In this document: piece by piece, positions 2,311 to 29,181 of the stretch
Layout of the letters: each line of letters starts with the position of its first letter
How positions within the stretch are numbered: position 1 is the stretch's first letter
Assembly (NCBI GenBank): GCA_048885185.1
Contig: JBHLQC010000002.1
Location: 1-41,798, forward strand
DNA: 41,798 nt
Direction: 5' to 3'
From: Candidatus Odinarchaeota archaeon
Lineage (GTDB): Archaea > Asgardarchaeota > Hermodarchaeia > Hermodarchaeales > Hermodarchaeaceae
Translations under genes and position numbers: made by a program
Notes under the pieces: model-generated
Databases searched by the model: none
What the model was told of the DNA's origin: nothing
Seen by the model: the letters and a program-made list of their open reading frames with translations, nothing else

Positions 2311-3121
2311 TTTTCCCCTTTTGCCAGCGATACTCAAAGCTTTGCTGAAATATGGCTACTATCCCCTCGTTAGAAGAGTAGCTTGGACGATATACATAAC
2401 GTGGTTGGCTCTTTTCGACGCCAGGAGATGCCCAGATTAGGAAAACGACTTTAGCTGAGTCAGCAAGAGTACCTCGAACTGGAAAACGTATATCGGAGGG
2501 TTGTCGGACACTAATACCTAATGACAGGAGTCTTTGCACTGCAGACCGGGTTGTGGGATGTTGCATATTCATGAGAACTCGAATTCTGACGCCCCGTTTC
2601 ATTGCCTTTGCTAGATCTTTCTCTACACCGTCAAACCAACTGAACACATCTGTAAAAATATCGAGAGATTTTTCAGCCTCAACAATTAGTTGTCTTGTTT
2701 GTTTTTCTGTTATTGCCAGATTATCCAAAGATTCTAAGAGATCTTCAGGTCGAATTCGGAGACGCTCGCGCCAAAATATTGGAGAGAGAACCTCTTTTAC
2801 TTCCTGACTAGTTTCTACAAGTTGACGGAACGATTCCTCTGAGGCATGTTTTCGTATTGCCAATAAATTTTGGAAACCTTCCTCCGGACTTATGATTTCA
2901 AATTTTTTAGGTCGACCTTCAATTATCACAATTAATCCTAAGTTTTTGAGACTCTCTAGAACTCCATAAACGCGCGGTATTGGGATATTTGCTTTACGGG
3001 CGATTTCCTCAGCACTCATTTGTGATCCTTGCACGAGTATGAGGTATGCCTGTGTTTCATATTCTGTTAGACCCAGTTGTCTAAGTTTTTCAGCAGGTTC
3101 GGTTAACGACATGACAACCAT
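2291..3121 (-). CDS. TrmB-family transcriptional regulator (N-terminal wHTH plus C-terminal effector-like domain)
   Basis: LGLTEYETQAYLILVQGSQMSAEEIARKANIPIPRVYGVLESLKNLGLI is a typical TrmB HTH. The 3' end overlaps the convergent transferase gene by 20 nt. Confidence 0.75.
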   Translation of the reverse strand: MVVMSLTEPAEKLRQLGLTEYETQAYLILVQGSQMSAEEIARKANIPIPRVYGVLESLKNLGLIVIIEGRPKKFEIISPEEGFQNLLAIRKHASEESFRQLVETSQEVKEVLSPIFWRERLRIRPEDLLESLDNLAITEKQTRQLIVEAEKSLDIFTDVFSWFDGVEKDLAKAMKRGVRIRVLMNMQHPTTRSAVQRLLSLGISVRQPSDIRFPVRGTLADSAKVVFLIWASPGVEKSQPRYVYRPSYSSNEGIVAIFQQSFEYRWQKGKTRKPVD

Positions 3122-3220
3122 ATTGCTTGTTGCGATTCCCCTAAATTATCGTTTCGAATAAACTGGTTTAAACGTAACATCGGTAACTTTTTTTAAGCTG
3201 TACCGAATCCTCTAGTTCTG

Positions 3221-4192
3221 GTGATTTCAGTGACTTCTGTTAGGGTTGGTGTTATTGGCGTTGGCGCATGGGGAAAAAATCATGTTCGTGTCTTTTCCGA
3301 GCTAGAAGAAGCCACTCTTGCAGGAATTGCAGATCGAGATGTCCAAAGGGCAAAAACCTATGCACAACAGTTCAATACTATCCACTACTCAAGTGTTGAG
3401 GAATTATTGAAGCAGGAAGATATTGATGCCGTTACTATATGCACTCCAACTGTGACGCATGCGGATCTTGCTTTGCAGGCAATTGATGTTGGAAAACATC
3501 TGTTGTTGGAAAAGCCAATGACTGATACCGCACAACAAGCACAACGTGTCATTGATGCCGCTAAGTCAGCAAAAATCACTTTGATGGTCGGTTTCGTAGA
3601 ACGATTTAACCCTTCTGTCGAAACCGCAGCTAAGATTATTGACGATGAAAAAATAGGTGAATTAGTATTGGGTTCAGCACGAAGGCTGGGTCCTTTTGTA
3701 CCAGGCCGAGTAGCAGATATCGGGATAATTAAAGACATGGCCATACATGATATCGATATTGCTCGATTTCTTGCAAAGCAGGAAGCGACGTCAGTTTATG
3801 CAATTGCAGGTCAACTTTATCACAAATATGAAGATCATGCAAACCTCGTAATTCGTTTTAATGACAAGCCCACATTTTTCCTTGAATGTAATTGGTTGAC
3901 ACCACAAAAAATGCGAGGTATGAATATCACTGGTTCCCAAGGAGTGATATCATTAGATTACATTTCTCAAGAAGTGACCCTTGGAACCAGCCAGCAAGTG
4001 CAAAAATCCCCTTTGCTATGGGATGAACCTCTAAAACGCGAACTTTCTCATTTTATTAAATGCGTTGCAAAAAACCAGAATCCTATAACTTCAGGATCTG
4101 ATGGATTGGAGGCTCTCAGAATTGCCGAAGCTGCATTAAAAAGCGCTCGCACAAAAAGCATAATCTATCTAGAGGAGTTTCGGACCAATTGA
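3221..4192 (+). CDS. Gfo/Idh/MocA-family NAD-dependent sugar dehydrogenase (WbpB-like UDP-sugar 3-dehydrogenase candidate)
   Basis: N-terminal Rossmann motif VGVIGVGAWGKNH and the LLLEKPM (EKP) motif. The stop overlaps the start of the next gene (TTGA). Confidence 0.75.
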   Translation: MISVTSVRVGVIGVGAWGKNHVRVFSELEEATLAGIADRDVQRAKTYAQQFNTIHYSSVEELLKQEDIDAVTICTPTVTHADLALQAIDVGKHLLLEKPMTDTAQQAQRVIDAAKSAKITLMVGFVERFNPSVETAAKIIDDEKIGELVLGSARRLGPFVPGRVADIGIIKDMAIHDIDIARFLAKQEATSVYAIAGQLYHKYEDHANLVIRFNDKPTFFLECNWLTPQKMRGMNITGSQGVISLDYISQEVTLGTSQQVQKSPLLWDEPLKRELSHFIKCVAKNQNPITSGSDGLEALRIAEAALKSARTKSIIYLEEFRTN

Positions 4193-4962
4193 AGTTGAAA
4201 TCAAAAATCCATCCGTCTTCCATTATTGAAGGAACTGTGAATCTTGGAACAGGAAACATCGTGGAACCTTTTGTATTCCTCAGAGGTGATATCAGGACTA
4301 GAAAAAAGTGTTATTTCAGCACAGGATGTAATATTCAGGGTCCTGCAAGAATTGGTTCCTCTGTTTTCTTTGGTGAAAGAACGTCAATAGGTTTCCCTAG
4401 TCAACGCCAGATTATACAATTTCAAGAAGGAAAAGCTGAATCGCTTTGGACTGATTCTGCGACCACAAAAATAGGAAACAGCTGTATCATCCGAACAGAA
4501 TCTGTCATTTACGCAGGATCACAAATTGGTAATAATGTCCGCATGGGTCACAATACGTTAATTCGTGAACAAGTCACAATTGGTGATAACACCCTTGTTG
4601 GAACAGGAGTGGTGATTGATGGAAATACTTCGGTTGGAAAGAATGTGTCAATTCAAACCAACGTTTACATCCCCTGGCAGACATTGATTGAGGATCACGT
4701 TTTCCTCGGCCCCAACTGTATTCTTACCAATGATAAGTATGTCATGCGTAAAGATTACGAATTAAAGGGTCCAATTCTACGGAGAGGAGTTAGTGTCGGA
4801 GCAGGAGCTGTGATATTACCAGCAATTGAAATTGGCCCTGAAGCAGTGATTGGAGCAGGAGCGGTTGTAACTAAGGACGTTCCTCCAAAAGCAATTGTCT
4901 ATGGTGTACCTGGGCGCATTCATTCTTCGGTTCCAGACTCTTGGAAGATTCCTAAGGAATGA
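4189..4962 (+). CDS. Hexapeptide-repeat (left-handed beta-helix) acyl/acetyltransferase, WbpD-like sugar N-acetyltransferase candidate
   Basis: Repeated [LIV]G-x4 hexapeptides (IGNNVRMGHNTLIREQVTIGDNTLVGTGVVIDGNTSVGKNVSI...). Translationally coupled to the upstream dehydrogenase. Confidence 0.75.
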   Translation: MKLKSKIHPSSIIEGTVNLGTGNIVEPFVFLRGDIRTRKKCYFSTGCNIQGPARIGSSVFFGERTSIGFPSQRQIIQFQEGKAESLWTDSATTKIGNSCIIRTESVIYAGSQIGNNVRMGHNTLIREQVTIGDNTLVGTGVVIDGNTSVGKNVSIQTNVYIPWQTLIEDHVFLGPNCILTNDKYVMRKDYELKGPILRRGVSVGAGAVILPAIEIGPEAVIGAGAVVTKDVPPKAIVYGVPGRIHSSVPDSWKIPKE

Positions 4963-16097: not shown

Positions 16098-18167
16098 ATG
16101 GTTTGTCCATTTCAGTTGCATGACGCTTCACCAGATAAGAAAAGGATTCAATTTAGCTGCGATTTATGTTCGTTCCAAGGACCAGCAAAAGGCGATATCG
16201 CTCTCAATTCTTTTTGCCGCCAACAATTCCTTCAGGTAATTTCTTTTACAGATTCCTCTCTTTCATGCCGTTTCAACACTAGAAATCAATTAGTTTCACT
16301 ACCAGCACAGGCAACAAAAATTCTCAAGGAGTACATTGCTACTGTTACAAAACACGAAAAAAGAATACACGATATTTTCAGACAACATCCTGAGATTAAA
16401 CAGAAGTTATATTCTGATCCTGTAGCAGCTTATCGAACGATTATATCCAATTATAATTCAACACCCAAGCGGGTCATTCGAGATTTCATTAAAGATCTCG
16501 AAAAAACCAGTTTAATTTCACTATTAAATTCCCAATTTAGTGATAATCATTCATTTGATAAAAACGTCTTCTACGAGGGCCTTTTAAAAATTAAAAGGGC
16601 TCCAATTGGTTATGATGATTACAAAAGCCTAGAAGAGAATTGCCATCTACTTAGCTCGTATGATGTGGGTCCATTTAATATCAACGTATATGAGTTCCTT
16701 CCCATTCCACTTGAAAAATACTACCGAGTGTCTATCCGCTTGGATGAAACGTTATCTCCAAGAATTTTCCAATATCTTTTTTCTCATCATAGTTCGAATC
16801 ACATAGAAGGAGCGCATCTTCAGAATCTAGATGAACTAATGGATAGAAAGATTTCTGACTTCCAAAATTATCTTCGTTCTAACTTTGTCGAATTAACTGA
16901 TGAAGAACGAAAAAATCTAGCCACCTTTGCAACTGCCCAATCAATTGGGTTAGGTAAAACCATACCATTGTTGCTTGATGACAACGTTCAAGAAGTTTAC
17001 CTCGATAAGCCGGGTAATGCATACTATTTAGACCATGCTGTGTGGGGACGCTGCAAGTCGAATCTAGTGCCTTCTGATTCGGAATTGTCACATATTATAA
17101 CACGACTTCGTCTTGAAAGCCGTAGACCTCTTGATGAGAAGACTCCGTCACTCAAAACAGAACTACAGACTAGTCTTTTCCATGTTCGAGCAGCAGTTGA
17201 CATTCCTCCTTTAGCTCATGAAGGTCCACATCTAAATATTCGAAAAATCCGAATGCGGACACTAACACTCCCTGAACTTATCAGGAATGGGACTATCTCG
17301 CTAACTGCTGCAGCGTTTTTGGTTTTATGCATGACATTGCGAATCAACATTACTATTGGAGGTGAACCTGCTACAGGAAAAACAACTTTAGCAAATGCTA
17401 TCAATCTTCTAGCTCCACCCAATTGGCGAAGGATTGCCATCGAAGATGCTCTTGAAAGCGTCACTGTCAATGAAAAGGGGAGGCACAAAGTTACATTTCG
17501 AGTTGATCCATTTGATTCACTTGAGAAAAGCGGCTCAACAAAATCAAAAGAAATTATTCGGTTGTTGCATCGATCACCTGATTGGGTGTTTTTAGGTGAA
17601 ATTCAAACTGCTGAACATAGTTCTGCAATGTTTCATGCATTAAGTGCAGGTATTAGGGGAATTCAGACTTGTCATGCTAATTCAAATAATGAACTCTTAT
17701 TACGATGGAAAATTCATCACAACATTCCAGAAGTTTGTTTTGAAAGTCTAGGACTCCTTGTTCACATGGTGAAAGATGTAATACAAGGACGAATTATTCG
17801 TAGAGTGGCTCAAATTAGTGAAGTAAAATATGGAGAATCATCCTCCTCATTGGTAACTCTATATGAATGGAATAAGGTGTCAGGGCATCTTGAACAAAAA
17901 TCTGATGAGATTATTACTCCATTAATTATTAGGGCGTGTCAATTCCAGAAGATAACTCAGCACGATGTTCGTAAACAGTTTGAGACCTATAAAGAAACTT
18001 TAGCTACGCTGATTTCTAAACAGGAAGAAACCCCGAGCACGATCGTTTCGACTTTTGATAAAACACATGCTCGTATCTTTTCTGGTACAAAGAATCCACT
18101 AAAAACTCAAAGCAATAAGACAACAAATGAGGGAGAGGTCATTGGATTACATCAAATTACTGGCTAA
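16098..18167 (+). CDS. Type II/IV secretion-family ATPase (GspE/VirB11/FlaI/TadA-CpaF superfamily) with a long N-terminal extension
   Basis: Walker A GGEPATGKTTLANAI, Walker B/Asp box DWVFLGEIQTAEH and His box IQTCHANS. About 400 aa lie upstream of the P-loop, including an N-terminal Cys cluster (CPF...CDLC). Confidence 0.8.
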   Translation: MVCPFQLHDASPDKKRIQFSCDLCSFQGPAKGDIALNSFCRQQFLQVISFTDSSLSCRFNTRNQLVSLPAQATKILKEYIATVTKHEKRIHDIFRQHPEIKQKLYSDPVAAYRTIISNYNSTPKRVIRDFIKDLEKTSLISLLNSQFSDNHSFDKNVFYEGLLKIKRAPIGYDDYKSLEENCHLLSSYDVGPFNINVYEFLPIPLEKYYRVSIRLDETLSPRIFQYLFSHHSSNHIEGAHLQNLDELMDRKISDFQNYLRSNFVELTDEERKNLATFATAQSIGLGKTIPLLLDDNVQEVYLDKPGNAYYLDHAVWGRCKSNLVPSDSELSHIITRLRLESRRPLDEKTPSLKTELQTSLFHVRAAVDIPPLAHEGPHLNIRKIRMRTLTLPELIRNGTISLTAAAFLVLCMTLRINITIGGEPATGKTTLANAINLLAPPNWRRIAIEDALESVTVNEKGRHKVTFRVDPFDSLEKSGSTKSKEIIRLLHRSPDWVFLGEIQTAEHSSAMFHALSAGIRGIQTCHANSNNELLLRWKIHHNIPEVCFESLGLLVHMVKDVIQGRIIRRVAQISEVKYGESSSSLVTLYEWNKVSGHLEQKSDEIITPLIIRACQFQKITQHDVRKQFETYKETLATLISKQEETPSTIVSTFDKTHARIFSGTKNPLKTQSNKTTNEGEVIGLHQITG

Positions 18168-18966
18168 AATAGGTAAGTATACGCCGGGAGTAGCGCAAAT
18201 TAGTAACCGTATTACATCAAAACAGTTCATTAAAGCCGTGGAGTACCTGTATCATGACTCATTATGTCCAGTCAGCATTTCAGGAGGTGTGGTATTAGTA
18301 AGCTGTGCTTTCTTTGGATTAACCACCATCATCCTGAGTTTATTTGTTAATCCTATTAGCGCATGTGTCTTGGGTATCACAATTGCTCTAATGAGTTTTT
18401 TCATTATTATGAATGGATTAATTTCTAGATTTAATAGTCAGCTAGTTCAAATCGAAAAAGTTGCCCCCTATGTTCTTGAAGAATTAGCAACGATTTATCT
18501 AACAACTGGGTCTGTATTTGAGGCTATTCAGTATGTTTCAAAAGGAGATTATTGCCTTGTTTCAGATGCATTTTCTAAAATGATTATGCCGCTAAACCAA
18601 GGTGAAACTCCGGAACAACTGCTGATGGGTTTTGCAATTAATCAACCCTCATTTACCCTTCGTAGGGGACTTCTTGCGTTTATTCAGTACATTGAATCTT
18701 CGACAAGTAACCTTGACGCTGTTATTGTGGATGCCCATGAGAATATTCAACGGAGATATGAAAAGTTAACAATCCAATGGGAGAGTCGAATGATGGTATA
18801 TTCAGGTCTTCTAGTCTTTTTGCCAATTATTATCATTTTGGGATTGGCAATTCGTGGTTTAGCAGATAATCCACTCATTCTACTGTTGCCTGTTTTCCAG
18901 TTTGGATTTTCTAAACTGTTGCATTCATCGCTTCTTCCAAAGGAGAATATCTTGTTAGGAGAGTAG
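18127..18966 (+). CDS. Type II secretion system F-domain membrane protein (TadB/FlaJ-N-like)
   Basis: Polytopic membrane protein immediately after the ATPase. The layout of TM pair, soluble helical domain, then TM is typical of T2SSF. Confidence 0.6.
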   Translation: MRERSLDYIKLLAKIGKYTPGVAQISNRITSKQFIKAVEYLYHDSLCPVSISGGVVLVSCAFFGLTTIILSLFVNPISACVLGITIALMSFFIIMNGLISRFNSQLVQIEKVAPYVLEELATIYLTTGSVFEAIQYVSKGDYCLVSDAFSKMIMPLNQGETPEQLLMGFAINQPSFTLRRGLLAFIQYIESSTSNLDAVIVDAHENIQRRYEKLTIQWESRMMVYSGLLVFLPIIIILGLAIRGLADNPLILLLPVFQFGFSKLLHSSLLPKENILLGE

Positions 18967-18974
18967 AAGTTAAT

Positions 18975-19634
18975 TTGGAATCGGATAATGATTTTGACCA
19001 ATTTGTCGATTTTATGACACACTTTTCTACTGAATTATCTTCAGGGAATAGCCCAGAATATGCACTTCTTAGAACTTCGAATTACTTTGGGAGACAAACA
19101 CCAATAGAGATTACCAGAATTGTAAAAAACATCGTTGAAGGAACAAAATCATTTCATGTTGCATGGTCTGATTTAATCAAAGAATACGAGAATAACCGAA
19201 ATTCTCGACTGGTAGAATTGTTAGGCCGATTTATCGATAAGGGATCGATAGTGGGAGGAGAAAGAATGCTTCTAGTTTTAAAGCAGATTCGAAAAAACAG
19301 TGCTATAACAAAAAACCGGAAGAACCTAGTAAGTGGGCAGAGAATGAAGGTGAAGGCGCTTTCTATTGTTTCATCAGTAGTAATTGGAATGATTGCAGCC
19401 CTTGCCCCAATGCTAACTTTCGCGTTTGTCGAGGGATTTCTTTCTAGCCCCGAAATCAATTATTCCAGTTCTTTTTCCTTCTCTATTCTTTTGGCATTAT
19501 TCTTAACTGTCGTGATAACGGGATACAGATTAAGTCAGACAGTAGGAGGAGTCCGTCATTCAGTGTTCCTAAGCATGTTTGCGTTTATATCAACTTACAT
19601 TCTGATAAACCACCTTCTCATGGCTTTCTTGTAA
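18975..19634 (+). CDS. Type II secretion system F-domain membrane protein (TadC/FlaJ-C-like)
   Basis: Second T2SSF-like unit: a soluble helical N-terminal domain followed by C-terminal TM segments. Confidence 0.55.
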   Translation: MESDNDFDQFVDFMTHFSTELSSGNSPEYALLRTSNYFGRQTPIEITRIVKNIVEGTKSFHVAWSDLIKEYENNRNSRLVELLGRFIDKGSIVGGERMLLVLKQIRKNSAITKNRKNLVSGQRMKVKALSIVSSVVIGMIAALAPMLTFAFVEGFLSSPEINYSSSFSFSILLALFLTVVITGYRLSQTVGGVRHSVFLSMFAFISTYILINHLLMAFL

Positions 19635-19682
19635 TTGTGGAGCTTAAATAACGTGATGCGAACTGCCTATCGGGATAACTGA

Positions 19683-19898
19683 ATGAATATACTGAAAACA
19701 ATTGTGGGATTTCTTCGTAATAAACGGGGTTCGCCTTTAGTAGAAGAAGGATTACTTCTGGGGCTAGCAATTTTAACCATTACTATTCTTATTACAGTAA
19801 TTCTTGATGTACTGGGTTGGTCTCAAGGGCTTTTCCAGTCAATTTTGATCCAGTTAGATCAAGTAAGGCAGGCTTTTCTTGGTTGGATTGGTGGCTAG
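19683..19898 (+). CDS. Flp/Tad-type (class III signal peptide) pilin candidate
   Basis: MNILKTIVGFLRNKRG|SPLVEEGLLLGLAILTITILITVIL has a basic leader ending in Gly, Glu at +5 of the predicted mature end, and then a hydrophobic helix. The protein is 71 aa, like Flp pilins. Confidence 0.6.
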   Translation: MNILKTIVGFLRNKRGSPLVEEGLLLGLAILTITILITVILDVLGWSQGLFQSILIQLDQVRQAFLGWIGG

Positions 19899-19924
19899 TC
19901 CTGCTCTTCTAATCTTGCACAAAA

Positions 19925-21265
19925 TTAAGAGCTCGCACTGGAGGCAGATTCAATCTTTTTTAGTCCCAATCCTTGTAGAGGTTCATTGGTAAGAATTCCA
20001 GTATTAATCGAAATTGGTGGAATCTCCGTTTGTGGATGGGGTCTTATGATTAGTTCATTTGATTCATCGGATTCAACTACTTGAGGAGTAATAATCCGTT
20101 CGTTTCTAACTAGATGAGTACCATCCTGCGAGGAATCGGAGGAGTGGGCTACAATACCTGCAGGAGAGTCTATTCGATATAATTGGAGGGCGTTCCAATC
20201 GACATCATCAAAGATTTCGATGTTACCACGAAAGCCGGGTAAAACAGCCGAGTTCCCTTCTAAACCAGTTACAATAAGCAAAACGCGCACATAACCTGCG
20301 AAATCAGATATTATTCGAGCGCCCCAAATTATTCTAGCATCATGTCGCATTTGTCGTGTGACTACATCAGCAACACGCGTAGCTTCATCCAAGCTTAAAT
20401 CTGGACCACCAATAACATGAATTAAGGCTCCTGTTGCACCTTTAACGCTTAGATCACCGAGTAAAGGAGAGTGGAGCGCGTTTTTGACAGCCTCGGATAT
20501 TCGATCTTTGCCTTTAGTCTCCGATTTGGTAGCTTCGCCTAATCCGACTAAAGCAACTCCACCACCAGCAAGAACGCTTCGTACATCTGCAAAATCAAGG
20601 TTAATCAGGCTAGGTAGACTGATTGTTTCGGTTACGCCCTTAACCATGCTAGCAAGGATTTCATCTGCTACACTGAATGCCTCATCAATTGGTAGGTCGC
20701 GTGCAATCTCAAGGAGTTTATTATTATCGATTACAATGACAGTGTCGGCATATCTTCGCAATCGCTGAAGACCACGATGAGCCTTATCAATTCGTGCTCC
20801 TTCAATGGTAAATGGTGTCGTTACGGTACAAACAACAATTGCACCATTCTGTTTAGCAATTTCAGCAATTACTGGTGCAGCACCCGTTCCCGTTCCTCCG
20901 CCTAGACCGGCAGCAATGAATAGTAAATCAACACCACGAAGAAGAGTTGTTAGATCTTGTCTGGACTCTTCAGCCGCAGCAGCACCTAGCTCAGGGAATC
21001 CACCTGTCCCTAATCCCCTAGTAATTGTTTTTCCAATTAGCATTTTCTTATGAGAACGAACGTGATCGAGGTGTTGTTGATCAGTATTCACTGCTATGCA
21101 TTCGGCCCCTTGAATGCCAATTTGTACTAGCCTGTTGATGGTATTATTCCCACCACCCCCAACACCCGCTACCATAATTCGAGCGCCGGGTTTTGAATAT
21201 CTTGGATTATTCTTTGTTTGGCGTTGTGTTGCATCACGTACAAGCTTAGATAGTCCGCTGTCCAT
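19925..21265 (-). CDS. ftsZ: Cell division GTPase FtsZ (tubulin/FtsZ family) with a long C-terminal linker
   Basis: VAGVGGGGNNTINRL, the tubulin signature GLGGGTGTGAAPVIA, NTDQQHL and a C-terminal peptide GLGLKKIE. Confidence 0.95.
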   Translation of the reverse strand: MDSGLSKLVRDATQRQTKNNPRYSKPGARIMVAGVGGGGNNTINRLVQIGIQGAECIAVNTDQQHLDHVRSHKKMLIGKTITRGLGTGGFPELGAAAAEESRQDLTTLLRGVDLLFIAAGLGGGTGTGAAPVIAEIAKQNGAIVVCTVTTPFTIEGARIDKAHRGLQRLRRYADTVIVIDNNKLLEIARDLPIDEAFSVADEILASMVKGVTETISLPSLINLDFADVRSVLAGGGVALVGLGEATKSETKGKDRISEAVKNALHSPLLGDLSVKGATGALIHVIGGPDLSLDEATRVADVVTRQMRHDARIIWGARIISDFAGYVRVLLIVTGLEGNSAVLPGFRGNIEIFDDVDWNALQLYRIDSPAGIVAHSSDSSQDGTHLVRNERIITPQVVESDESNELIIRPHPQTEIPPISINTGILTNEPLQGLGLKKIESASSASS

Positions 21266-21272
21266 CAGATAT

Positions 21273-21455
21273 TCACCTTGCCGTTATTTGTGGAGATTTT
21301 TGTGCCCAAAGTTCCCGTTTCAGTAAGTCTCTGACTGCAATTCTAATTGCTTCACTTCTATTAGGATAGAGTTTTTCAAGAATTAGTTGTTCGATTCCGT
21401 TTACGTATGCTTCGGGGAGGTTAACTGTAATTAGCTTCATCTCAATCAGAGACAT
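21273..21455 (-). CDS. Ribbon-helix-helix (CopG/Arc/MetJ) protein directly upstream of ftsZ; CdrS-like
   Basis: KLITVNLPEAYVNGIEQLILEKLYPNRSEAIRIAVRDLLKREL is an RHH motif. Its stop lies 7 nt from the ftsZ start. Confidence 0.7.
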   Translation of the reverse strand: MSLIEMKLITVNLPEAYVNGIEQLILEKLYPNRSEAIRIAVRDLLKRELWAQKSPQITAR

Positions 21456-21760: not shown

Positions 21761-21875
21761 GCGGGGGTACCCGAGCACGGTCTATGGAGCTTGATAGAAA
21801 GTTCCGACTAAAGGGGCAGGACTGAGGCTCCTGTGGTGTAGACCTTCGTGGGTTCAAATCCCACCCCCCGCACCA
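21761..21875 (+). tRNA. tRNA-Leu(GAG), class II with a long variable arm, a 27-nt intron in the D-loop and encoded CCA
   Basis: GCGGGGG-UA-CCC-GAGCACGGUCUA[27 nt]A-GGG-G-CAGGA-CUGAGGC-UCCUG-UGGUGUAGACCUUC-GUGGG-UUCAAAU-CCCAC-CCCCCGC-A-CCA. Confidence 0.85.
21785..21811 (+). other. tRNA-Leu D-loop intron (27 nt)
   Basis: BHB: central helix GGUC(21779-82)/GACU(21806-09), bulges UA|U and AA|A, 7-bp inner helix GGAGCUU/AAGUUCC. Confidence 0.8.
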
Positions 21876-21945
21876 TTCTCAGTCTACTCAATCTTTTGTT
21901 GGTTTTTATAGCGAAAACTGCTCCAATTTATGGAGCTATCAAACC

Positions 21946-22872
21946 GTGTCACGAAAAATGTTGGAGCAGTTTGGTTTGCATCTGCAAAGTATCAAATCTG
22001 TTCCAGGAGTTGAAAACTCTGTATTAGTCCAGCGTGATGGCTACCCGATTTCTAGTAGTGGTGTGTGGTTATCAGAAAATGAAATTTTTGGATTGTCTTC
22101 GTCTGCCGCAGCGATTCTCTCAGTAGCCCAGCGACTCCATGAAGATCTGTATTATGTCTTAATAGAAGGAGAACGCAGTAAATTTTTACTGGCTACATTA
22201 CCCCGTGCCGTGAATTATTTTATTACTGTAACTACACAGAGTAACAGCAATCTTGGTGCTTTGTTGTTACAATTGGAACGGACAATTACTCATCTTGATG
22301 AAGCCCTTTGGAATGAGCATTTCATTCCTCCTTTACGCACATTTGAACAGAATGAAAGAGCCAAGATAGTTGATTCTTTTAATGTGCGAGAAGGCCCCAG
22401 AAGAAGGTGGTCAACAAGAACATTGAATCTCACAATAACTGAAAATGCTGCTCAGCAAATCACTGATATTGTTTCTGATTTTCTCCACGCCTTACCTTCA
22501 GCTCAAACAGGAGAAGTTTGTCTTGAAGGGGGATACTTAATTCCTACACAAAGATACAACGAAGGCGTTCGTATTAGGAATTCAACTCTAACATATACGC
22601 TTTTTGACACATCCAGAAAAGTTGCCCAATTAGTAAAACGGACTAGCATTCTACAAGTGCTATGCGATTGCGGGGCAAGTCAGCATTTTATTTACAAACT
22701 TCAAGGAGGATTGTTTAGCACTTTCATAAGAAAAGATTCGACGCGGTTAGGATTACTCCGTTTGATAATTCCTAATTTTATTGCAGAAATTGAATCCGTA
22801 TTGCAAAAAGCACCAACAGCACAACGACCTACCCTCGATGTGGACGGTTTTTTGGAGGCAATAGCTCGATGA
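21946..22872 (+). CDS. Tandem Roadblock/LC7 (MglB-like) domain protein
   Basis: The first domain, LQSIKSVPGVENSVLVQRDGYPISSSG...YYVLIEGERSKFLLATLP, is classic Roadblock/LC7. The second half (EVCLEGGYLIPTQ...FIYKLQGGLFSTFIRK) repeats the pattern. Confidence 0.7.
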   Translation: MSRKMLEQFGLHLQSIKSVPGVENSVLVQRDGYPISSSGVWLSENEIFGLSSSAAAILSVAQRLHEDLYYVLIEGERSKFLLATLPRAVNYFITVTTQSNSNLGALLLQLERTITHLDEALWNEHFIPPLRTFEQNERAKIVDSFNVREGPRRRWSTRTLNLTITENAAQQITDIVSDFLHALPSAQTGEVCLEGGYLIPTQRYNEGVRIRNSTLTYTLFDTSRKVAQLVKRTSILQVLCDCGASQHFIYKLQGGLFSTFIRKDSTRLGLLRLIIPNFIAEIESVLQKAPTAQRPTLDVDGFLEAIAR

Positions 22873-23753
22873 ACACTTTTCTTGATAACGTTTTGAATAC
22901 TCTCGGCAGAAAACAGCTTGCAATAGTTCTAAGATCTGTTTTGGATAGGTATCCTGTAATCATTCACGGAGATTCACCAGAAGTTATCGATTCAATTGCC
23001 GAGACTCTTGTGAAATTTGTTCCCCACCGTAAAGAAGTAGTTTTTGGCTCTGATTTCGTTTCCTTTTCAGATCATGAGCGAATGATGAACCATGAAAGAA
23101 GCGATTACAATGGAGAACGAATAGTATACCGTTCTCCGTCAACATCAACTGAGTTACTTCGTAGTCAGATTAACGATTTTCAAGGATGGATTATGGCCAT
23201 TGAACAGAAAGACATCGAGGAAGTAAAGAGTAAATGTGCTCAAGCTTCTCCAGTTATTATTCGATTTGTAGAGGGGGTTCTAAAATTAGAATCGAATGGC
23301 ACTCCAAAGGCAATCACAAATACACGCTTTGAAGAAAAACTGTTAGAAAAAGTAACCTCTGAAACTGGTACAAAAATGGAGAGAATTACTAGGATTTTAC
23401 GCCGAGCTGCACATGGAAAAGTAAGTGAAAGATTAGAAAAAAGCCTAATCGATCTGAAACAGGAAGAGGAGAGGGTCCGACAGAGCTTATACAGAGAACA
23501 TATTCAGGGGTTTGTTGAAGCATCGTGGAGGGTTATGATCATCTTAATGCGGCTTAGATTATTGCAGGGTGTTGGAGTTAAATCAGTAATCTCTGATAAG
23601 ATGTTAGGGCAGGCAATAGATTATCAGGGATCTTCAATTGATCGACTTATGGATTTTATAAAAGCCGAGTGGGGTGAAGATTTTCGAAGTTCTGTTCAAG
23701 ATGGGGCAGGACATCAATTTGGCGATAGACTGGAAGGGTTTTGGTCAATTTAA
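22869..23753 (+). CDS. Hypothetical protein encoded between the Roadblock and GTPase genes (candidate GTPase regulator)
   Basis: ATGA start/stop overlap with the Roadblock gene. An N-terminal alpha/beta-like region (YPVIIHGDSPEVIDSIAETLVKFVPHRKEVVFG) precedes a helical C-terminal half. No family recognised. Confidence 0.45.
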   Translation: MNTFLDNVLNTLGRKQLAIVLRSVLDRYPVIIHGDSPEVIDSIAETLVKFVPHRKEVVFGSDFVSFSDHERMMNHERSDYNGERIVYRSPSTSTELLRSQINDFQGWIMAIEQKDIEEVKSKCAQASPVIIRFVEGVLKLESNGTPKAITNTRFEEKLLEKVTSETGTKMERITRILRRAAHGKVSERLEKSLIDLKQEEERVRQSLYREHIQGFVEASWRVMIILMRLRLLQGVGVKSVISDKMLGQAIDYQGSSIDRLMDFIKAEWGEDFRSSVQDGAGHQFGDRLEGFWSI

Positions 23754-23766
23754 AGCCAAGAGATGA

Positions 23767-24363
23767 ATGACCGTGTTAATAGATTGGAGTCAAAATATTA
23801 TTCAAACGAAGATTGTTTATTATGGACCAGCGATGAGTGGGAAAACTGAGAGCATACGTGCACTCTTTAAGCATCTCAATATTTTATCTCGGCTTGAATC
23901 AATTGAAACAACATCAGGTCGTACCCTCTTTTTTGATTACGGACCGATTGAACTTGTCCATGGTGATTGGATTATTCAGATTCATATTTGGTCTGCAACC
24001 GGGCAGGACTATTATGCTGAAACCCGTTCTACTGTGTTAGCAGGAACAGATGGTATTGTATTTGTTGCCGATTCGAATCCGAGTTTGATACATGAAAACT
24101 TGCGATGTTGGGAGGAATTGAAGGGATTTTTTGGACCACAACTTTCAACAAATATTCCCGTAGTTTTCGCTTTGAATAAACGGGATTTATGGCCAGCAAT
24201 CAGTCAGTTTGATTTTGTAAATACCCTAGAGTTGAATGGGTTCTCTCTAATCTTTGAGACCGTTGCTACCCAAGGAACCTTCGTCGTTGAAGTTTTACAA
24301 GAGATGTTACGAAACATTTTGCTGGGCTCGAATCTTGCACAACCCAAAAAGATAGGTACATAG
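23767..24363 (+). CDS. MglA-family small GTPase (Ras superfamily)
   Basis: The protein aligns along its length with my memory of Myxococcus MglA. P-loop KIVYYGPAMSGKT, GRTLFFDY (intrinsic Arg-finger region), G3 WSATGQ (Asp replaced, as in MglA TVPGQ), DGIVFVADS and NKRD. Confidence 0.8.
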   Translation: MTVLIDWSQNIIQTKIVYYGPAMSGKTESIRALFKHLNILSRLESIETTSGRTLFFDYGPIELVHGDWIIQIHIWSATGQDYYAETRSTVLAGTDGIVFVADSNPSLIHENLRCWEELKGFFGPQLSTNIPVVFALNKRDLWPAISQFDFVNTLELNGFSLIFETVATQGTFVVEVLQEMLRNILLGSNLAQPKKIGT

Positions 24364-24402: not shown

Positions 24403-25281
24403 ATGCGCGTTTCTGAGCTAGAGAATGTTTTTGTTACATTATTACGCCTGGCTGTTACTGATTTACCTCAGGATGTAGTCAACGGTTTAGAAAAAGCATT
24501 GAAGTTAGAGAGTAACTCCACGGCGAAGAGTCAACTTGAAGCGATACTAGAAAACATCAAGCTTGCTCGTCAACGTTCTATTCCAATGTGCCAAGATACC
24601 GGCATCCAGATTTTTTATTTAACAGTCGGATCAAAATTTCCACTGATTACTGAAATTCCTCAAATACTCGAAAATGCAGTTAGAAGAGGAACCCAAGAAA
24701 TCCCATTGAGACCAAACACTGTAAATCCGCTGTTTCCCAAAAACCCTGGTGACAATACCGGTCGGTATATTCCTTGGATTAATTGGAAGATTGTAAAAGG
24801 AAAGGACCTGCAAATAACTGCTTTCCCCAAAGGTGGGGGATCGGAAAATGTTAGTCAGTTGAGAATGCTCACACCAGGTCAAGGTTTGAAGGGAATGAAA
24901 CAGTTTGTGATTGACGCGGTTATTGAAACAGGAGCGAAAGCTTGTCCTCCCATAATAATTGGTATTGGAATTGGTGGAGGTGCGGATATTTGTATGAAGC
25001 TTGCGAAAGAACAGCTCCTTCGTCCTGTTGGGCAACGTCATCCTGACCAGAGGATTGCAGGCATGGAAGCAGAGTTGTTGGAGGCTATTAATAAAACTGG
25101 AATCGGACCAATGGGCTTGGGTGGAGATACAACAAGTTTGGATGTGCATATTGATTTCGCTATGCGACATCCAGCTTCATTTCCAGTGGGTTTGGCGGTG
25201 CAATGTTGGGCTGCAAGGCGCGCATCAGCAACGATTACTAGTGAGGGAAGAGTCGAATTTACTTCGCACAAGGTTGAATAA
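24403..25281 (+). CDS. Class I (Fe-S) fumarate hydratase / tartrate dehydratase, alpha subunit
   Basis: CQDTGI motif, PKGGGSEN, and a length and layout typical of the archaeal two-subunit enzyme. Confidence 0.85.
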   Translation: MRVSELENVFVTLLRLAVTDLPQDVVNGLEKALKLESNSTAKSQLEAILENIKLARQRSIPMCQDTGIQIFYLTVGSKFPLITEIPQILENAVRRGTQEIPLRPNTVNPLFPKNPGDNTGRYIPWINWKIVKGKDLQITAFPKGGGSENVSQLRMLTPGQGLKGMKQFVIDAVIETGAKACPPIIIGIGIGGGADICMKLAKEQLLRPVGQRHPDQRIAGMEAELLEAINKTGIGPMGLGGDTTSLDVHIDFAMRHPASFPVGLAVQCWAARRASATITSEGRVEFTSHKVE

Positions 25282-25282
25282 G

Positions 25283-25882
25283 ATGCCAATATACGAACTA
25301 ACCACACCAATTTCCGAAGATGACATTAGGAAACTCCGAGTCAATGATTTGATATATATTACAGGTACAATTTTTACAGCCCGTGATGAAGCTCATGAAA
25401 GGGCTTTGGAATGGTTCAAGGCAAACAAGCCTTTGCCTATCGACCCAACTGGATTAGTGGTGTTTCATTGTGGACCGATTGTGCGACAAGTGAAAGAAGG
25501 ATGGGAACTGATTGCAGCTGGACCTACTACTAGTACACGAATGGAGATGTTTGAGGAAAAATTCATTGAAGCCTTTCAAGTTCGTGTAGTAATAGGAAAA
25601 GGAGGCATGGGTTCTAAAACCGCAGCAGCAATGAAAAACGTTGGAGCCGTTTATGGTGCGTTTACAGGAGGTGCAGCTGTTTTAGCTGCAAAAGCCGTTC
25701 GCCGCATCACAGATGTTGCTTGGCTCGATCTTGGAATGCCTGAAGCTCTTTGGATAATGGAAGTCGAAAGATTTGGTCCGTTAATTGTTGCAATTGACGC
25801 TACTGGTGAGAACCTTTTTGAACGTGTACAAACAGCTGTCGAAAAAAACCGTGAAAAAGCTTACAAACTAGCTGGCATCTAA
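25283..25882 (+). CDS. Class I fumarate hydratase / tartrate dehydratase, beta subunit
   Basis: I placed the start at ATG 25283 (MPIYELTTPISEDDIRKLRVNDLIYITGTIFTARDEAHERAL), 2 nt after the alpha subunit stop. The track ORF from 25001 is an out-of-frame overlap with the alpha subunit. GKGGMG motif present. Confidence 0.8.
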   Translation: MPIYELTTPISEDDIRKLRVNDLIYITGTIFTARDEAHERALEWFKANKPLPIDPTGLVVFHCGPIVRQVKEGWELIAAGPTTSTRMEMFEEKFIEAFQVRVVIGKGGMGSKTAAAMKNVGAVYGAFTGGAAVLAAKAVRRITDVAWLDLGMPEALWIMEVERFGPLIVAIDATGENLFERVQTAVEKNREKAYKLAGI

Positions 25883-25888
25883 ACCACA

Positions 25889-27457
25889 CTATTTCAAGCT
25901 TTCACCACGATATGACGCCGCCAAAAGATCGGTTATATTCATCACTTTGATATCAGAACCTGCTTTCTTTACCGCATCTAATAGTTGGATGAAACAAAAA
26001 GAACAGCTAGTTGCTATCACATCTGGTTTTACGGCACTAAGAATTTCCAATTTAATTCCCGCGATTTCTTCAGAAAGCTCTCTACGACCTGCTCGCACTC
26101 CTCCACCAGCACCACAACATCGATCACTATCTTCAACATCGATAAATTCGATACCAGGAATCATTTTAAGAAGCCTTCGAGGTTCCTCACTAATTCCTTG
26201 ATGTCGGTTCAAATGACAAGGATCATGATAAACCACTCTGATCGGTAGAGGTTTTAGATCCTCTTGGTTTATTTTTTCAAGCCCAACTTCTCTGACTAAA
26301 TACTCAGTTATGTCAAAGGGTTCGAAATCATAAGGGGGTTTATCTTTCTCGTGGAGAACAATCGGCCAATCCTGTTTAATAGTTGACATACACCCAGGAC
26401 AAAGACCAACCACTTTTTTGACACCCCTTTCCGCGAAGGATTTTACATTCCGGAGAACCATATCATAAGCAACAGATCGTGCCCCTGTTCGAAAAGCAAC
26501 ACTGGTGCAACACACAAAATCCTTGGGAATGTGTACTCGTACGTTGTTGCGTCTCAATACTTCGACTACATTCAGTCCTACTTGTTGAATTCTCAAATTG
26601 ATTAGACAACCTGGGAAAAAAAGTACATCATCTATTGGCTTATCAACTTCGATAACTTCAGGTAGCTGGTCAGTTAGAGGAGGGGTCTTAACATCAACAG
26701 CGTATCCTGTGTCTTCAATTTGTGAGACAAACCCTTTGTGTCCTTCTAAAGGTCCCATTTCTCGCTCAACAGCAAGAGCCCGTAGACCTTCAACTGCTGT
26801 TCTCCGTGTATCAATGTGTTTGGGGACACAGACTTCCTTGCATATTCCACAGCTAGTGCAATCATAAAGCCCGCTACTAACTGCCATTTGAACTCGATCA
26901 CCTTGATCACGGGGGTCAAATTCAAAGCTTGCCAGCTCACGCATTGCAATAGGACCAGGATATTCTTGTTTTGCAGACTCGACAGCTGGGCAAGCTGCAT
27001 AACAGGAGAAGCATTCGATGCATGCTCGTAATTCCATTGCAGATGAAATTTCCTCGCGTGTTAGTATTTCTGGGCGATCAGGCGCAGAGGTTCGTTCAAG
27101 GTAAGGACGAAGTTTTTCAATACGTCTAAACCCAGGTCCGAGATCCACAACAAGATCTCGGATTATTGGAAAGTTAGGTAGTGGTTCTAGCACATAGTTA
27201 TTGTTAGGATCGACCACAGTACGACAGGCAAGTCCTGGTACCCCATTGATGTTAATGGCACAAGACCCACATTGTCCTGTTCTACAATTCCAACGGTAAG
27301 CTAGAGAGGAATCAAGATTTCCGAAGATATAATTTAGTGCATCTAAGACGCCCTGACGATCTGTATAAGGAACTTTATAGGTGACGAATTTCGGTTCATC
27401 ATCTAAATCTGGATTGTATCGTTGGATTCGAAATTTCACAACTTGGTTTTTTGGCAT
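25889..27457 (-). CDS. Succinate dehydrogenase/fumarate reductase Fe-S subunit fused to a double CCG (heterodisulfide-reductase-like) domain; TfrB-like
   Basis: 2Fe-2S site CRTGQCGSCAININGVPGLAC; ferredoxin motifs CIECFSCYAACP and CTSCGICKEVCVP; CCG motifs CCTSVAF and RCCGAGGG with flanking Cys. I prefer the start at ATG 27457 (GAGG 9 nt upstream); the ORF extends to 27505. Confidence 0.8.
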   Translation of the reverse strand: MPKNQVVKFRIQRYNPDLDDEPKFVTYKVPYTDRQGVLDALNYIFGNLDSSLAYRWNCRTGQCGSCAININGVPGLACRTVVDPNNNYVLEPLPNFPIIRDLVVDLGPGFRRIEKLRPYLERTSAPDRPEILTREEISSAMELRACIECFSCYAACPAVESAKQEYPGPIAMRELASFEFDPRDQGDRVQMAVSSGLYDCTSCGICKEVCVPKHIDTRRTAVEGLRALAVEREMGPLEGHKGFVSQIEDTGYAVDVKTPPLTDQLPEVIEVDKPIDDVLFFPGCLINLRIQQVGLNVVEVLRRNNVRVHIPKDFVCCTSVAFRTGARSVAYDMVLRNVKSFAERGVKKVVGLCPGCMSTIKQDWPIVLHEKDKPPYDFEPFDITEYLVREVGLEKINQEDLKPLPIRVVYHDPCHLNRHQGISEEPRRLLKMIPGIEFIDVEDSDRCCGAGGGVRAGRRELSEEIAGIKLEILSAVKPDVIATSCSFCFIQLLDAVKKAGSDIKVMNITDLLAASYRGESLK

Positions 27458-27477
27458 TAACTTTAGCCTCAAATCTC

Positions 27478-29181
27478 TTAATTCGTGACCCAAGGTGGCT
27501 TCCATTTTGTGACAATTACTTGTGTTTTTTTGAGTGTCATCAAACCCTTGCTTTGTGAAATTATGATATTAGCAAACCAGCTCTTATTATCTGGATTTGG
27601 ATAATCAGTTCGATAATGTGCACCTCTTGATTCTTTACGGAGAAGCGCAGCTCGAACGATCATCTCAGCAACAAGTGTCATATCTTGTAGCTCTAGGGCA
27701 CTGATCCACTCTGTATTATAGCGCGTGGTTTTATTACGAACAGAAAGTTTTGAAGCAATCTGTTCTTGTTGTTGTTTGATAAATTTGAGTGCTGCATTTA
27801 GGTCTTGTTCATTTCTGAATAACCCAGCCTTTTCCCACATTGTGCGTTGTAAACGCTCCACTTCCTTAGAAGGAATTACTTCCTCCTCCCTTTCCAAGGG
27901 TGCCATAACGCGTGAATATTCTTCTTGAATGATTTTCCTATTAAGAACTGGAGTTGGTGCAGTTGAGGCATATTTTGCAGCGGAGTCACCAGCAATTTTA
28001 CCGAACACTTGACCAGCTGCTAAAGCATTACCACCTAGTCTGTTACCACCATGAACTCCTCCTGCTACTTCTCCTGCTGCAAAAAGACCTTGAAGGTTTG
28101 TGCCACAAGAAATATCGATTCTTAGTCCTCCCATTACATGGTGAGCAGTGGGTGTGACTTCCATTGGTTCTTCTCGAATATCAATACCGATATCCAGGAA
28201 GTCCTCTAACATTGTAGGAAGCCGTTCTTCAATTATTTTTGCAGGTAGAAATGAAACATCTAAATACACTGCTTGATTTTCCGTTCCTCGCCCTTCACGA
28301 ATTTCAGTAGCTAATGATCTAGCAACTTCATCACGTCCAGCTAGCTCCATTTGACGCGGGTTATATCGTTTCATAAACCGTTCGCCATTTTTGTTCAGAA
28401 GAATACCGCCCTCACCACGTACACCTTCAGTCACTAATCGTCCACGAGCAGCCGGAGGAACAGCAGCGCCAGTTGGATGGAATTGAAATTGTTCCATATC
28501 AATTAATTCAACACCAGCTTTGTAAGCCATAGCATATCCACTACCAACATCAGCCTGGGCATTTGTAGTAACATCATAAATTCGTCCTGCACCGCCTGCA
28601 GCCAGGACTATAGCGGGAGCTCTGAAAACCCGGAATTTTCCGGTTCGAATGTCTATAACTGAGACGCCAGCTATGCGTTTTTTATCGCGAAAAAGTGACG
28701 TGGCAAATACCTCATCGATGATGTTAATTTCACGTCTACGAAGTTCGTCGGTCAGAGTAGATAAAACCTCATGCCCTGACCTATCTCCAGCATAGCATGT
28801 TCGACGAAAAGTTTGATGCCCAAAAGGTCGTTGCATGATTAACCCATCAGGGGTTCGAGAAAAAATTGCCCCAAAAGATTCAAGATCATATACACGTTGT
28901 GGCGCTTCATTAGCTAAGATTTCAGCAAGATCCTGATTGTTTAGGTAAGCTCCAGCCTTACAGGTGTCACTTGCATGAATGTCACATAAATCGTCAGGAT
29001 CCAGATTAGCTAGCGCTGCGTTAATTCCTCCTTCTGCCATTACAGTATGAGCTTTTCCAAGAATATCTTTAGTGATTATTGTGATTTCTTGATTAGATTC
29101 GGAGGCTGCAATGGCAGCACGACATCCTGCTCCCCCTGCACCAATAACTAATACATCTGTGTCAATGATTTCAAAAGTCAT
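27478..29181 (-). CDS. Succinate dehydrogenase/fumarate reductase flavoprotein subunit (SdhA/FrdA/TfrA-like)
   Basis: FAD motif DVLVIGAGGAGCRAAIAA, HTVMAEGG, HPTG, RGEGG, the active-site region HHVMGG and SRGAHYR. Confidence 0.9.
   Translation of the reverse strand: MTFEIIDTDVLVIGAGGAGCRAAIAASESNQEITIITKDILGKAHTVMAEGGINAALANLDPDDLCDIHASDTCKAGAYLNNQDLAEILANEAPQRVYDLESFGAIFSRTPDGLIMQRPFGHQTFRRTCYAGDRSGHEVLSTLTDELRRREINIIDEVFATSLFRDKKRIAGVSVIDIRTGKFRVFRAPAIVLAAGGAGRIYDVTTNAQADVGSGYAMAYKAGVELIDMEQFQFHPTGAAVPPAARGRLVTEGVRGEGGILLNKNGERFMKRYNPRQMELAGRDEVARSLATEIREGRGTENQAVYLDVSFLPAKIIEERLPTMLEDFLDIGIDIREEPMEVTPTAHHVMGGLRIDISCGTNLQGLFAAGEVAGGVHGGNRLGGNALAAGQVFGKIAGDSAAKYASTAPTPVLNRKIIQEEYSRVMAPLEREEEVIPSKEVERLQRTMWEKAGLFRNEQDLNAALKFIKQQQEQIASKLSVRNKTTRYNTEWISALELQDMTLVAEMIVRAALLRKESRGAHYRTDYPNPDNKSWFANIIISQSKGLMTLKKTQVIVTKWKPPWVTN

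Follow-up and report, generated by a model that had tools for sequence, protein, structure and literature searches.

The stretch of DNA analysed in this work (the window: 41,798 nucleotides (nt) of contig JBHLQC010000002.1, from an assembly labelled Candidatus Odinarchaeota archaeon) carries at positions 21946-24363 three tightly packed genes, here called g1, g2 and g3. They encode a protein of two fused Roadblock/LC7 domains, a protein that is probably the DENN-domain member of a published Asgard operon, and a small GTPase of the MglA type. With a probability of about 0.7, we read this locus as the version of the conserved Asgard Roadblock/DENN-like/small-GTPase operon that a close relative of Candidatus Hermodarchaeum yapensis carries, and as a self-contained GTPase switch. 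The nearest genome match to the locus is indeed Candidatus Hermodarchaeum yapensis (L010), whose GTPase is 97% identical, and this places the source among the Asgard archaea of the Hermod/Thor group. The gene structure, the families of g1 and g3 and the conservation of the operon are established by the analyses below. Three packed genes on one strand had been proposed in a first-pass annotation made from the sequence alone, and the open reading frames, the ATGA overlap and the 13-nt spacer lie exactly where it placed them (lengths in amino acids, aa; AF2, AlphaFold2):

21946-22872, + strand: g1, open reading frame of 308 aa with a GTG start
21946-22311, + strand: g1 Roadblock domain 1, residues about 1-122 (Pfam, PDB, AF2, Foldseek)
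22432-22815, + strand: g1 Roadblock domain 2, divergent, residues about 163-290 (hhalign and PDB profile matches)
22869-22872, + strand: ATGA overlap of the g1 stop codon TGA with the g2 ATG, junction gctcgATGAacac
22869-23753, + strand: g2, open reading frame of 294 aa
23754-23766, + strand: spacer of 13 nt between g2 and g3, agccaagagatga
23767-24363, + strand: g3, open reading frame of 198 aa

These reading frames are genuine genes and not chance occurrences, because g1 and g2 have homologues and the same gene order recurs in 64 of 80 independent loci. The homologues numbered 63 for g2, with identities of 49-93%, and 42 for g1, most of which carry the Pfam domain PF03259, and both alignments are strongly conserved over the full length of the protein. 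The 4-nt overlap of g1 and g2 recurs in Candidatus Hermodarchaeum yapensis and in two other loci (L001 and L002); such an overlap suggests translational coupling, by which g1 and g2 may be co-produced in fixed proportion.

Loci for comparison were retrieved through an alignment of the GTPase from contigs of one genome per species, which gave 301 relatives, and the best 80 of these were examined in a census with hidden Markov models of all three proteins. The three genes stand in the same order and on the same strand in 64 of the 80 loci; g2 and g3 are present on contigs that end upstream of them in three, a g1-like gene is directly followed by a GTPase gene without g2 in about 11, and the GTPase gene stands alone in two. 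Hermod-, Thor-, Odin-, Baldr-, Loki-, Hel-, Sigyn- and Hodarchaeota contribute to the 64 complete loci, one of which (L047) lies on the closed chromosome of Promethearchaeum syntrophicum MK-D1 (NZ_CP042905.2, about 153.6-156.1 kb). The Baldrarchaeia keep the module among other neighbouring genes, with a g2 identity of about 28%. Since the flanking genes vary between lineages, conservation as a unit applies to the three genes themselves. Thus, the three-gene order on which the first-pass annotation had built its proposal is conserved among relatives, but the novelty that it implied, a distinct three-component switch, does not stand, as the operon has already been published. In the part of their work that was accessible to us, Liu et al. 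(bioRxiv 10.1101/2020.10.19.343400; Nature 2021) describe as "conserved in most Asgard archaea" an operon in which a Roadblock-superfamily member and a small GTPase are encoded together with a DENN-domain protein, and the preprint proposes a folliculin-like exchange-factor action for it. Judged by composition and distribution, the module in the window is very probably this operon.

The family of g3 was decided by comparison with solved structures. Searching the PDB with phmmer, g3 matched the MglA of Thermus thermophilus (3t12) with an E-value of 1.5e-26 and that of Myxococcus with about 2e-22, versus 1.3e-5 for the best non-MglA chain, a DnaJ-family GTPase; Rab11 came next and Arf followed from 2.7e-4. 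By this measure g3 is an MglA-type small GTPase that is closer to MglA than to other Ras-superfamily groups, in agreement with the first-pass annotation, and the motifs quoted there (KIVYYGPAMSGKT, GRTLFFDY, WSATGQ and NKRD) are all found in the protein. The G1 or Walker A motif, GPAMSGKT, fits GxxxxGK[ST] and is invariant across six module orthologues. Arg R52, in GRTLFFDY, aligns with the intrinsic Arg of ERTLFFDF in the MglA of Thermus and Myxococcus, and SATGQ aligns with the TVPGQ of MglA, so that the G3 motif lacks Asp and keeps the Gln, with Ser replacing Thr. The catalytic Gln is Q80, and A77, T78, G79 and Q80 are invariant among the module orthologues; module orthologues taken from four distant loci all keep GPAMSGKT, GRTLFFD, ATGQ and NK.D unchanged. 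One could instead regard g3 as a Rab-like or Arf-like GTPase of eukaryotic type, and the module as a proto-Rab/DENN pair. Pfam recognises only the generic Arf, Ras and Roc families in g3 (small_GTP is likewise generic), no MglA-specific Pfam or NCBIfam model matched it in the library scans, and Liu et al., in the part of their text accessible to us, label the GTPase "Rab-like". However, among solved structures the MglA match is about 20 orders of magnitude better than that to Rab or Arf, and the invariant traits are those of MglA, namely the intrinsic Arg in RTLFFD and the Ser or Thr that replaces the Asp of G3; this alternative therefore appears very improbable to us.

The first-pass annotation had described g1 as a covalent double Roadblock protein, and both halves of the protein bear this out. 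The N-terminal half matches the Pfam family Robl_LC7 (PF03259) with an E-value of 2.2e-6 and 27.7 bits, against a curated cut-off of 23, and matches the PDB entries 7f8m and 7yh1. Its AF2 model, with a predicted local distance difference test score (pLDDT) of 58-88, has the expected a-b-b-a-b-b-b-a topology, and Foldseek placed it with Asgard Roadblock proteins, LAMTOR2/3 and MglB (E about 1e-7, template modelling (TM) score normalised to the target about 0.8). The C-terminal half is more divergent, and its AF2 model (pLDDT <50) is unreliable, so that no evidence on the fold was taken from it. When an alignment of 76 orthologues from across the Asgard archaea was used, hhalign aligned the N half with the C half over 120 columns, which is the whole domain, with a probability of 88% and P = 3e-6, against P = 0.08-0.56 for the controls with reversed sequence and unrelated profiles; with Thor and Hermod sequences only, the same comparison was non-significant (P = 0.33). 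The profile of the C half matched the PDB chains of the MK-D1 Roadblock3 (9jue_D, E 1.3e-7), a Thor Roadblock protein (7f8m, 1.1e-4) and CvnB5 (3leq, 4.5e-4), with MglB at E 0.3. These results support the view that g1 consists of two fused Roadblock/LC7 domains, which would make it an MglB-like covalent pseudo-dimer.

An MglB dimer binds one MglA and acts as a GTPase-activating protein (GAP) by positioning the Arg and Gln of MglA itself (PDB 3t12, 6izw). We propose that g3 is a switch that would likewise use its own catalytic Arg (R52) and Gln (Q80), and that g1, as the covalent equivalent of the MglB dimer, would dock on the switch regions of g3 and stimulate GTP hydrolysis by positioning these two residues. 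It may also influence nucleotide exchange, as some Roadblock/longin platforms do. The g2 protein, most likely a DENN-type domain, would bind g1, g3 or both; it would either serve as the exchange factor or form the scaffold half in a split Roadblock/longin-plus-DENN regulator like folliculin-FNIP. An MglB-like GAP platform is the most economical role for g1, because g3 has both the Arg and the Gln and g1 provides two Roadblock units per chain. We also considered g1 as an arginine-finger longin GAP of the type of folliculin (FLCN) or SMCR8, which bears a "GP motif", and rejected it. The Arg ahead of the DGYP loop (R30 in QRDGYP) is R, K or Q among homologues, and since it is not invariant, a trans arginine finger in g1 is argued against; g3, moreover, owns its Arg.

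The roles could, however, be reversed or redivided, such that g1 is an exchange factor or a membrane platform, as in Ragulator, Mon1-Ccz1 or TRAPP, and g2 is the GAP, an effector or a scaffold. Eukaryotic Roadblock/longin platforms are typically guanine nucleotide exchange factors (GEFs), and in folliculin-FNIP the DENN domains are scaffolds and the longin domains bear the GAP arginine; a bifunctionality of Roadblock/longin platforms is discussed in PMC13408092. What speaks against a reversal is that g3 holds the intrinsic Arg and Gln of MglA, the setting in which dimers of the MglB type are GAPs without supplying a catalytic residue, and that the variable R30 makes g1 unlike an arginine-finger longin GAP. 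We therefore consider reversed roles rather unlikely, and prefer g1 as the GAP platform of g3. The GAP and GEF roles, the formation of a complex and the cellular output are what we infer, the binding of g1 to g3 and its GAP action from the operon linkage in 64 of the 80 loci and from the paired genes described next.

Nine of the about 11 loci without g2 (L024-L032) carry a gene for a g1-like tandem Roadblock protein of 320-346 aa and, directly after it, one for an MglA-like GTPase of 184-188 aa, here called g1' and g3'. They come mostly from metagenome-assembled genomes labelled Hermodarchaeota, and at least four genomes with this two-gene pair also hold the three-gene module. In one of them (L026) the pair occupies positions 3032-3994 and 4001-4555 and is followed by an aminotransferase gene and a gene for a Ras-family GTPase. 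A paralogous pair without g2 in the same Hermod genomes weighs against a switch that needs all three components, and because such pairs exist, g2 is not obligatory for a Roadblock-GTPase pair. The pairs suggest that g2 supplements the core partners and is not one of them. In the census, g2 is flanked by both other genes in 64 of the 80 loci, which points to a functional association of g2 with the GTPase and its Roadblock partner.

The first-pass annotation had found no recognisable family for g2, and g2 alone indeed gave no match above threshold to Pfam, NCBIfam or the PDB sequences. It does, however, belong to a family: a profile search of 1.8 billion cluster representatives gave 89 relatives of about 300 aa, the named members of which come from Baldrarchaeia and Promethearchaeota, and by this membership the family spans the Asgard archaea. 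A further search with a broad g2 alignment returned mostly Thor and Hermod sequences, P0186 being the sole addition. Scanning the longer g2 relatives with Pfam for a fused longin domain gave none. Conserved motifs of the family are LRxLLDRxPIxIxG, LxP(H/F)R, DF, E..D...R and F.GW.xG. The AF2 model of g2 (mean pLDDT 59.8) has an N-terminal alpha/beta domain at residues about 14-141 with pLDDT 67-85, in which six strands alternate with helices (about 30-141), followed by four long helices, of which those at 144-210 have pLDDT <50. As its composition and distribution match those of the DENN protein of Liu et al., we assign g2 to that protein, and it is probably the DENN-domain protein of the published operon.

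Several sub-threshold matches point in the same direction. Folliculin_C, which we take to be the DENN domain of folliculin, matched two family members (P0108, E 4.8e-4; P0107, E 0.015) and the N domain of the g2 of the window (E 0.095) with 20.2, 15.3 and 12.7 bits, against a curated cut-off of 27; the register was constant, with protein residues 5-62 on profile positions 4-62. Avl9, presumably a family of the DENN superfamily, matched through its profile positions 162-230 the N domain of the g2 family consensus (E 0.005, 15.9 bits, cut-off 22). With Foldseek, the g2 model matched DENND1B (3tw8) with a probability of 0.87, E 0.043 and a TM score of 0.24, ranking below secretion ATPases.

A number of results weigh against our reading of the locus, most of them in this DENN part. 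Every DENN-superfamily Pfam match to g2 lies under its curated cut-off, and Folliculin_C was not reproduced among the matches listed (25 families) for a second set of 45 g2 orthologues. When g2 profiles were compared by hhalign with the C-terminal domain of human FLCN, whose sequence was verified against PDB 6ulg, P was 0.44, though in the expected register. No DENN chain appeared in PDB profile searches with full-length g2 or its N domain, which returned ferritin and KaiC at chance level. The AF2 model is mediocre, and the stronger, though still weak, matches of g2 are to the RecA/ASCE-type ATPases VirB11, CpaF, FlaI and KaiC. In addition, Liu et al., as far as their text was accessible to us, name the GTPase "Rab-like" and the Roadblock protein "LAMTOR1-like". 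The DENN assignment of g2 is thus statistically unestablished by the present tests, all of which stayed below threshold.

The ATPase matches raise another explanation, in which g2 is not a DENN protein but a catalytically dead RecA/ASCE-type (P-loop-like) ATPase fold that works alongside the Roadblock-GTPase pair as its adaptor or effector. VirB11, CpaF, GspE and FlaI are the top Foldseek matches (probability 0.89-0.98, E about 0.01-0.04), and the top PDB profile match of the N domain is KaiC (E about 0.09-0.2), over the region of the Walker B strand. However, all these matches are non-significant, with TM scores <0.3, and they may not discriminate between the two folds, as the DENN and ATPase folds are both three-layer alpha/beta sandwiches. 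A signature of an active P-loop or RecA-like NTPase was sought in the alignment and consensus of the g2 family, and neither Walker motif is there: at the P-loop position the consensus is PIIVxGDxxxxxD, without GK[ST], and at the Walker B position it is (E)R-x-I-x-x-x-P, and no acidic residue is conserved beyond the strand. The Pfam pointers favour DENN-superfamily families, and the published analysis, in its accessible part, names the protein DENN. An ATPase fold for g2 is accordingly improbable in our view, and DENN-like remains our description of the protein.

Divergent paralogues of the g2 family stand side by side in two loci, L006 (5052-5966 and 6001-6936) and L005 (849-1856 and 1872-3176), with no Roadblock or GTPase gene nearby. 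This arrangement recalls DENN heterodimers, for example FLCN-FNIP.

If the DENN-like protein and the fused Roadblock protein do regulate an MglA-type GTPase, the GAP/GEF logic of eukaryotic membrane traffic would predate eukaryogenesis. We further speculate, with considerable doubt, that the published "DENN operon" is an MglA/MglB switch of bacterial type in which the MglB pseudo-dimer is covalent and to which a DENN regulator of eukaryotic type has been added. It would then be a living intermediate between the MglA-MglB polarity switches of prokaryotes and the longin/Roadblock-DENN regulators of Rab, Rag and Arf in eukaryotes. In that case, a DENN domain would act on an MglA-type GTPase, and the g1'-g3' paralogue would be a natural "minus-DENN" control. 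The operon is among the few conserved neighbourhoods of the Asgard "eukaryotic signature" trafficking proteins, and because the GTPase is packed with its two candidate regulators, the system is directly testable in vitro.

The surroundings of the module in the window comprise the following features:

16098-21455, upstream of g1: type-IV-pilus/Tad-like cluster, then a divergent FtsZ gene and a gene for a small ribbon-helix-helix (RHH)/CopG protein
21761-21875, + strand: tRNA-like gene directly 5' of g1, with acceptor stem, T arm, encoded CCA and a long insert
21903-21910, + strand: candidate archaeal TATA box TTTTTATA, 36 nt 5' of the g1 start codon, inferred from sequence
24403-29181, downstream of g3: fumarate neighbourhood

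The upstream cluster encodes a T2SSE ATPase of 689 aa, a membrane protein resembling T2SSF and, judged by eye, a possible pilin of 71 aa; the divergent FtsZ has 446 aa. This arrangement is repeated in L002, and the RHH gene with its upstream neighbour is seen in L001. Downstream, the + strand encodes the alpha and beta subunits of a class I fumarate hydratase, and the - strand a pair resembling fumarate reductase or succinate dehydrogenase, composed of a flavoprotein and an iron-sulphur protein fused to CCG domains, of the thiol:fumarate-reductase type. In Myxococcus, MglA controls the polarity of type IV pili, and by this analogy the adjacency of the pilus cluster to an MglA-type gene is suggestive. 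The wider neighbourhood (pilus-like ATPase cluster, FtsZ-RHH, fumarase and fumarate-reductase-like pair) is, however, conserved in the Hermod/Thor group only, and because the pilus and FtsZ neighbours are lineage-specific in this way, they are no evidence of function.

Running ARAGORN on the tRNA-like gene in its default mode called nothing, and the match to the Rfam model of transfer-messenger RNA was confined to the acceptor and T-arm ends and stayed under the gathering threshold (E 1e-5). In intron mode, ARAGORN reported a class II tRNA of 115 nt that contains an intron, the placement of which decides between Ser and Leu. The gene probably encodes an archaeal tRNA interrupted by a non-canonical intron.

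Some further observations concern the module in other genomes. Just 3' of the module, most Lokiarchaeial loci have a gene in convergent orientation for an Arf-like GTPase of about 226-231 aa (Pfam Arf, E 6e-16), for example at 3921-4616 on the - strand of L089. In Baldrarchaeia, a fourth gene of 208 aa follows on the same strand 5 nt past the GTPase gene (6457-7083 in L003, 3114-3740 in L004); its product has no match in Pfam and may be an extra module component in this lineage. Complete modules lie on two contigs labelled as bacteria, CAZWON010000051.1 ("Planctomycetia bacterium", L038) and DATKTW010000131.1 ("Nanopelagicaceae bacterium", L057). A protein labelled Bathyarchaeota (P0022) was grouped with these as Asgard-type under a foreign label, and all three are probably mis-binned Asgard contigs.

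With respect to the published operon, the agreement lies in three genes for a Roadblock-superfamily protein, a non-Rag small GTPase and a DENN-labelled protein of about 300 aa, present in most Asgard lineages. The differences are that the accessible part of Liu et al. labels the GTPase "Rab-like", whereas it is MglA-type here, and leaves the tandem duplication of the Roadblock domain unmentioned. Neither a fused double Roadblock protein nor an MglA-type label for the operon GTPase was found in the literature examined, parts of which were accessible to us only as extracts. Asgard MglA groups (MglA1 and MglA2-5) have been defined in earlier literature, Tran et al. 2024 solved structures of Asgard Roadblock proteins and noted MglA-like GTPases in MK-D1, a 2025 paper in Traffic discusses Asgard longins of the FLCN/SMCR8 type, and a 2026 study of MglA-MglB modelled an MglA/MglB-like pair from Thorarchaeota. 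The present work therefore adds modest refinements and no new system: the GTPase belongs to the MglA type and is not "Rab-like", and in the Roadblock protein two domains make up a tandem pseudo-dimer. Both points are useful when choosing constructs.

Among characterised switches, the bacterial MglA-MglB pair of Thermus thermophilus and Myxococcus xanthus (3t12, 6izw) shares with the module the intrinsic Arg finger, a G3 motif without Asp, the catalytic Gln, a Roadblock-fold partner in the same operon and an expected ratio of two Roadblock units per GTPase. Unlike in the bacterial pair, a single chain here holds both Roadblock domains, which have diverged from each other and would form a pseudo-heterodimer. 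A third gene separates the GTPase gene from the Roadblock gene, and neither RomR nor RomX is evident in the vicinity. Folliculin-FNIP, which acts on RagC/D, C9orf72-SMCR8 and DENND1B-Rab35 resemble the module in that a Roadblock/longin platform and a DENN-like alpha/beta-plus-helical unit work on a small GTPase, and the weak g2 matches lie at the start of Folliculin_C and at Avl9 positions 162-230. In contrast to these regulators, the Roadblock and DENN-like parts of the module are separate polypeptides, the platform is Roadblock and not longin, the client is MglA-type and not Rab, Rag or Arf, and the DENN homology of g2 is non-significant. Ragulator, with LAMTOR2/3 and LAMTOR4/5, likewise uses a Roadblock-Roadblock pair as a GTPase platform, and the Foldseek TM score to LAMTOR2/3 is about 0.8 (target); in the module, however, the pair is covalent, and its client would be a stand-alone GTPase without a Roadblock C-terminal domain of its own.

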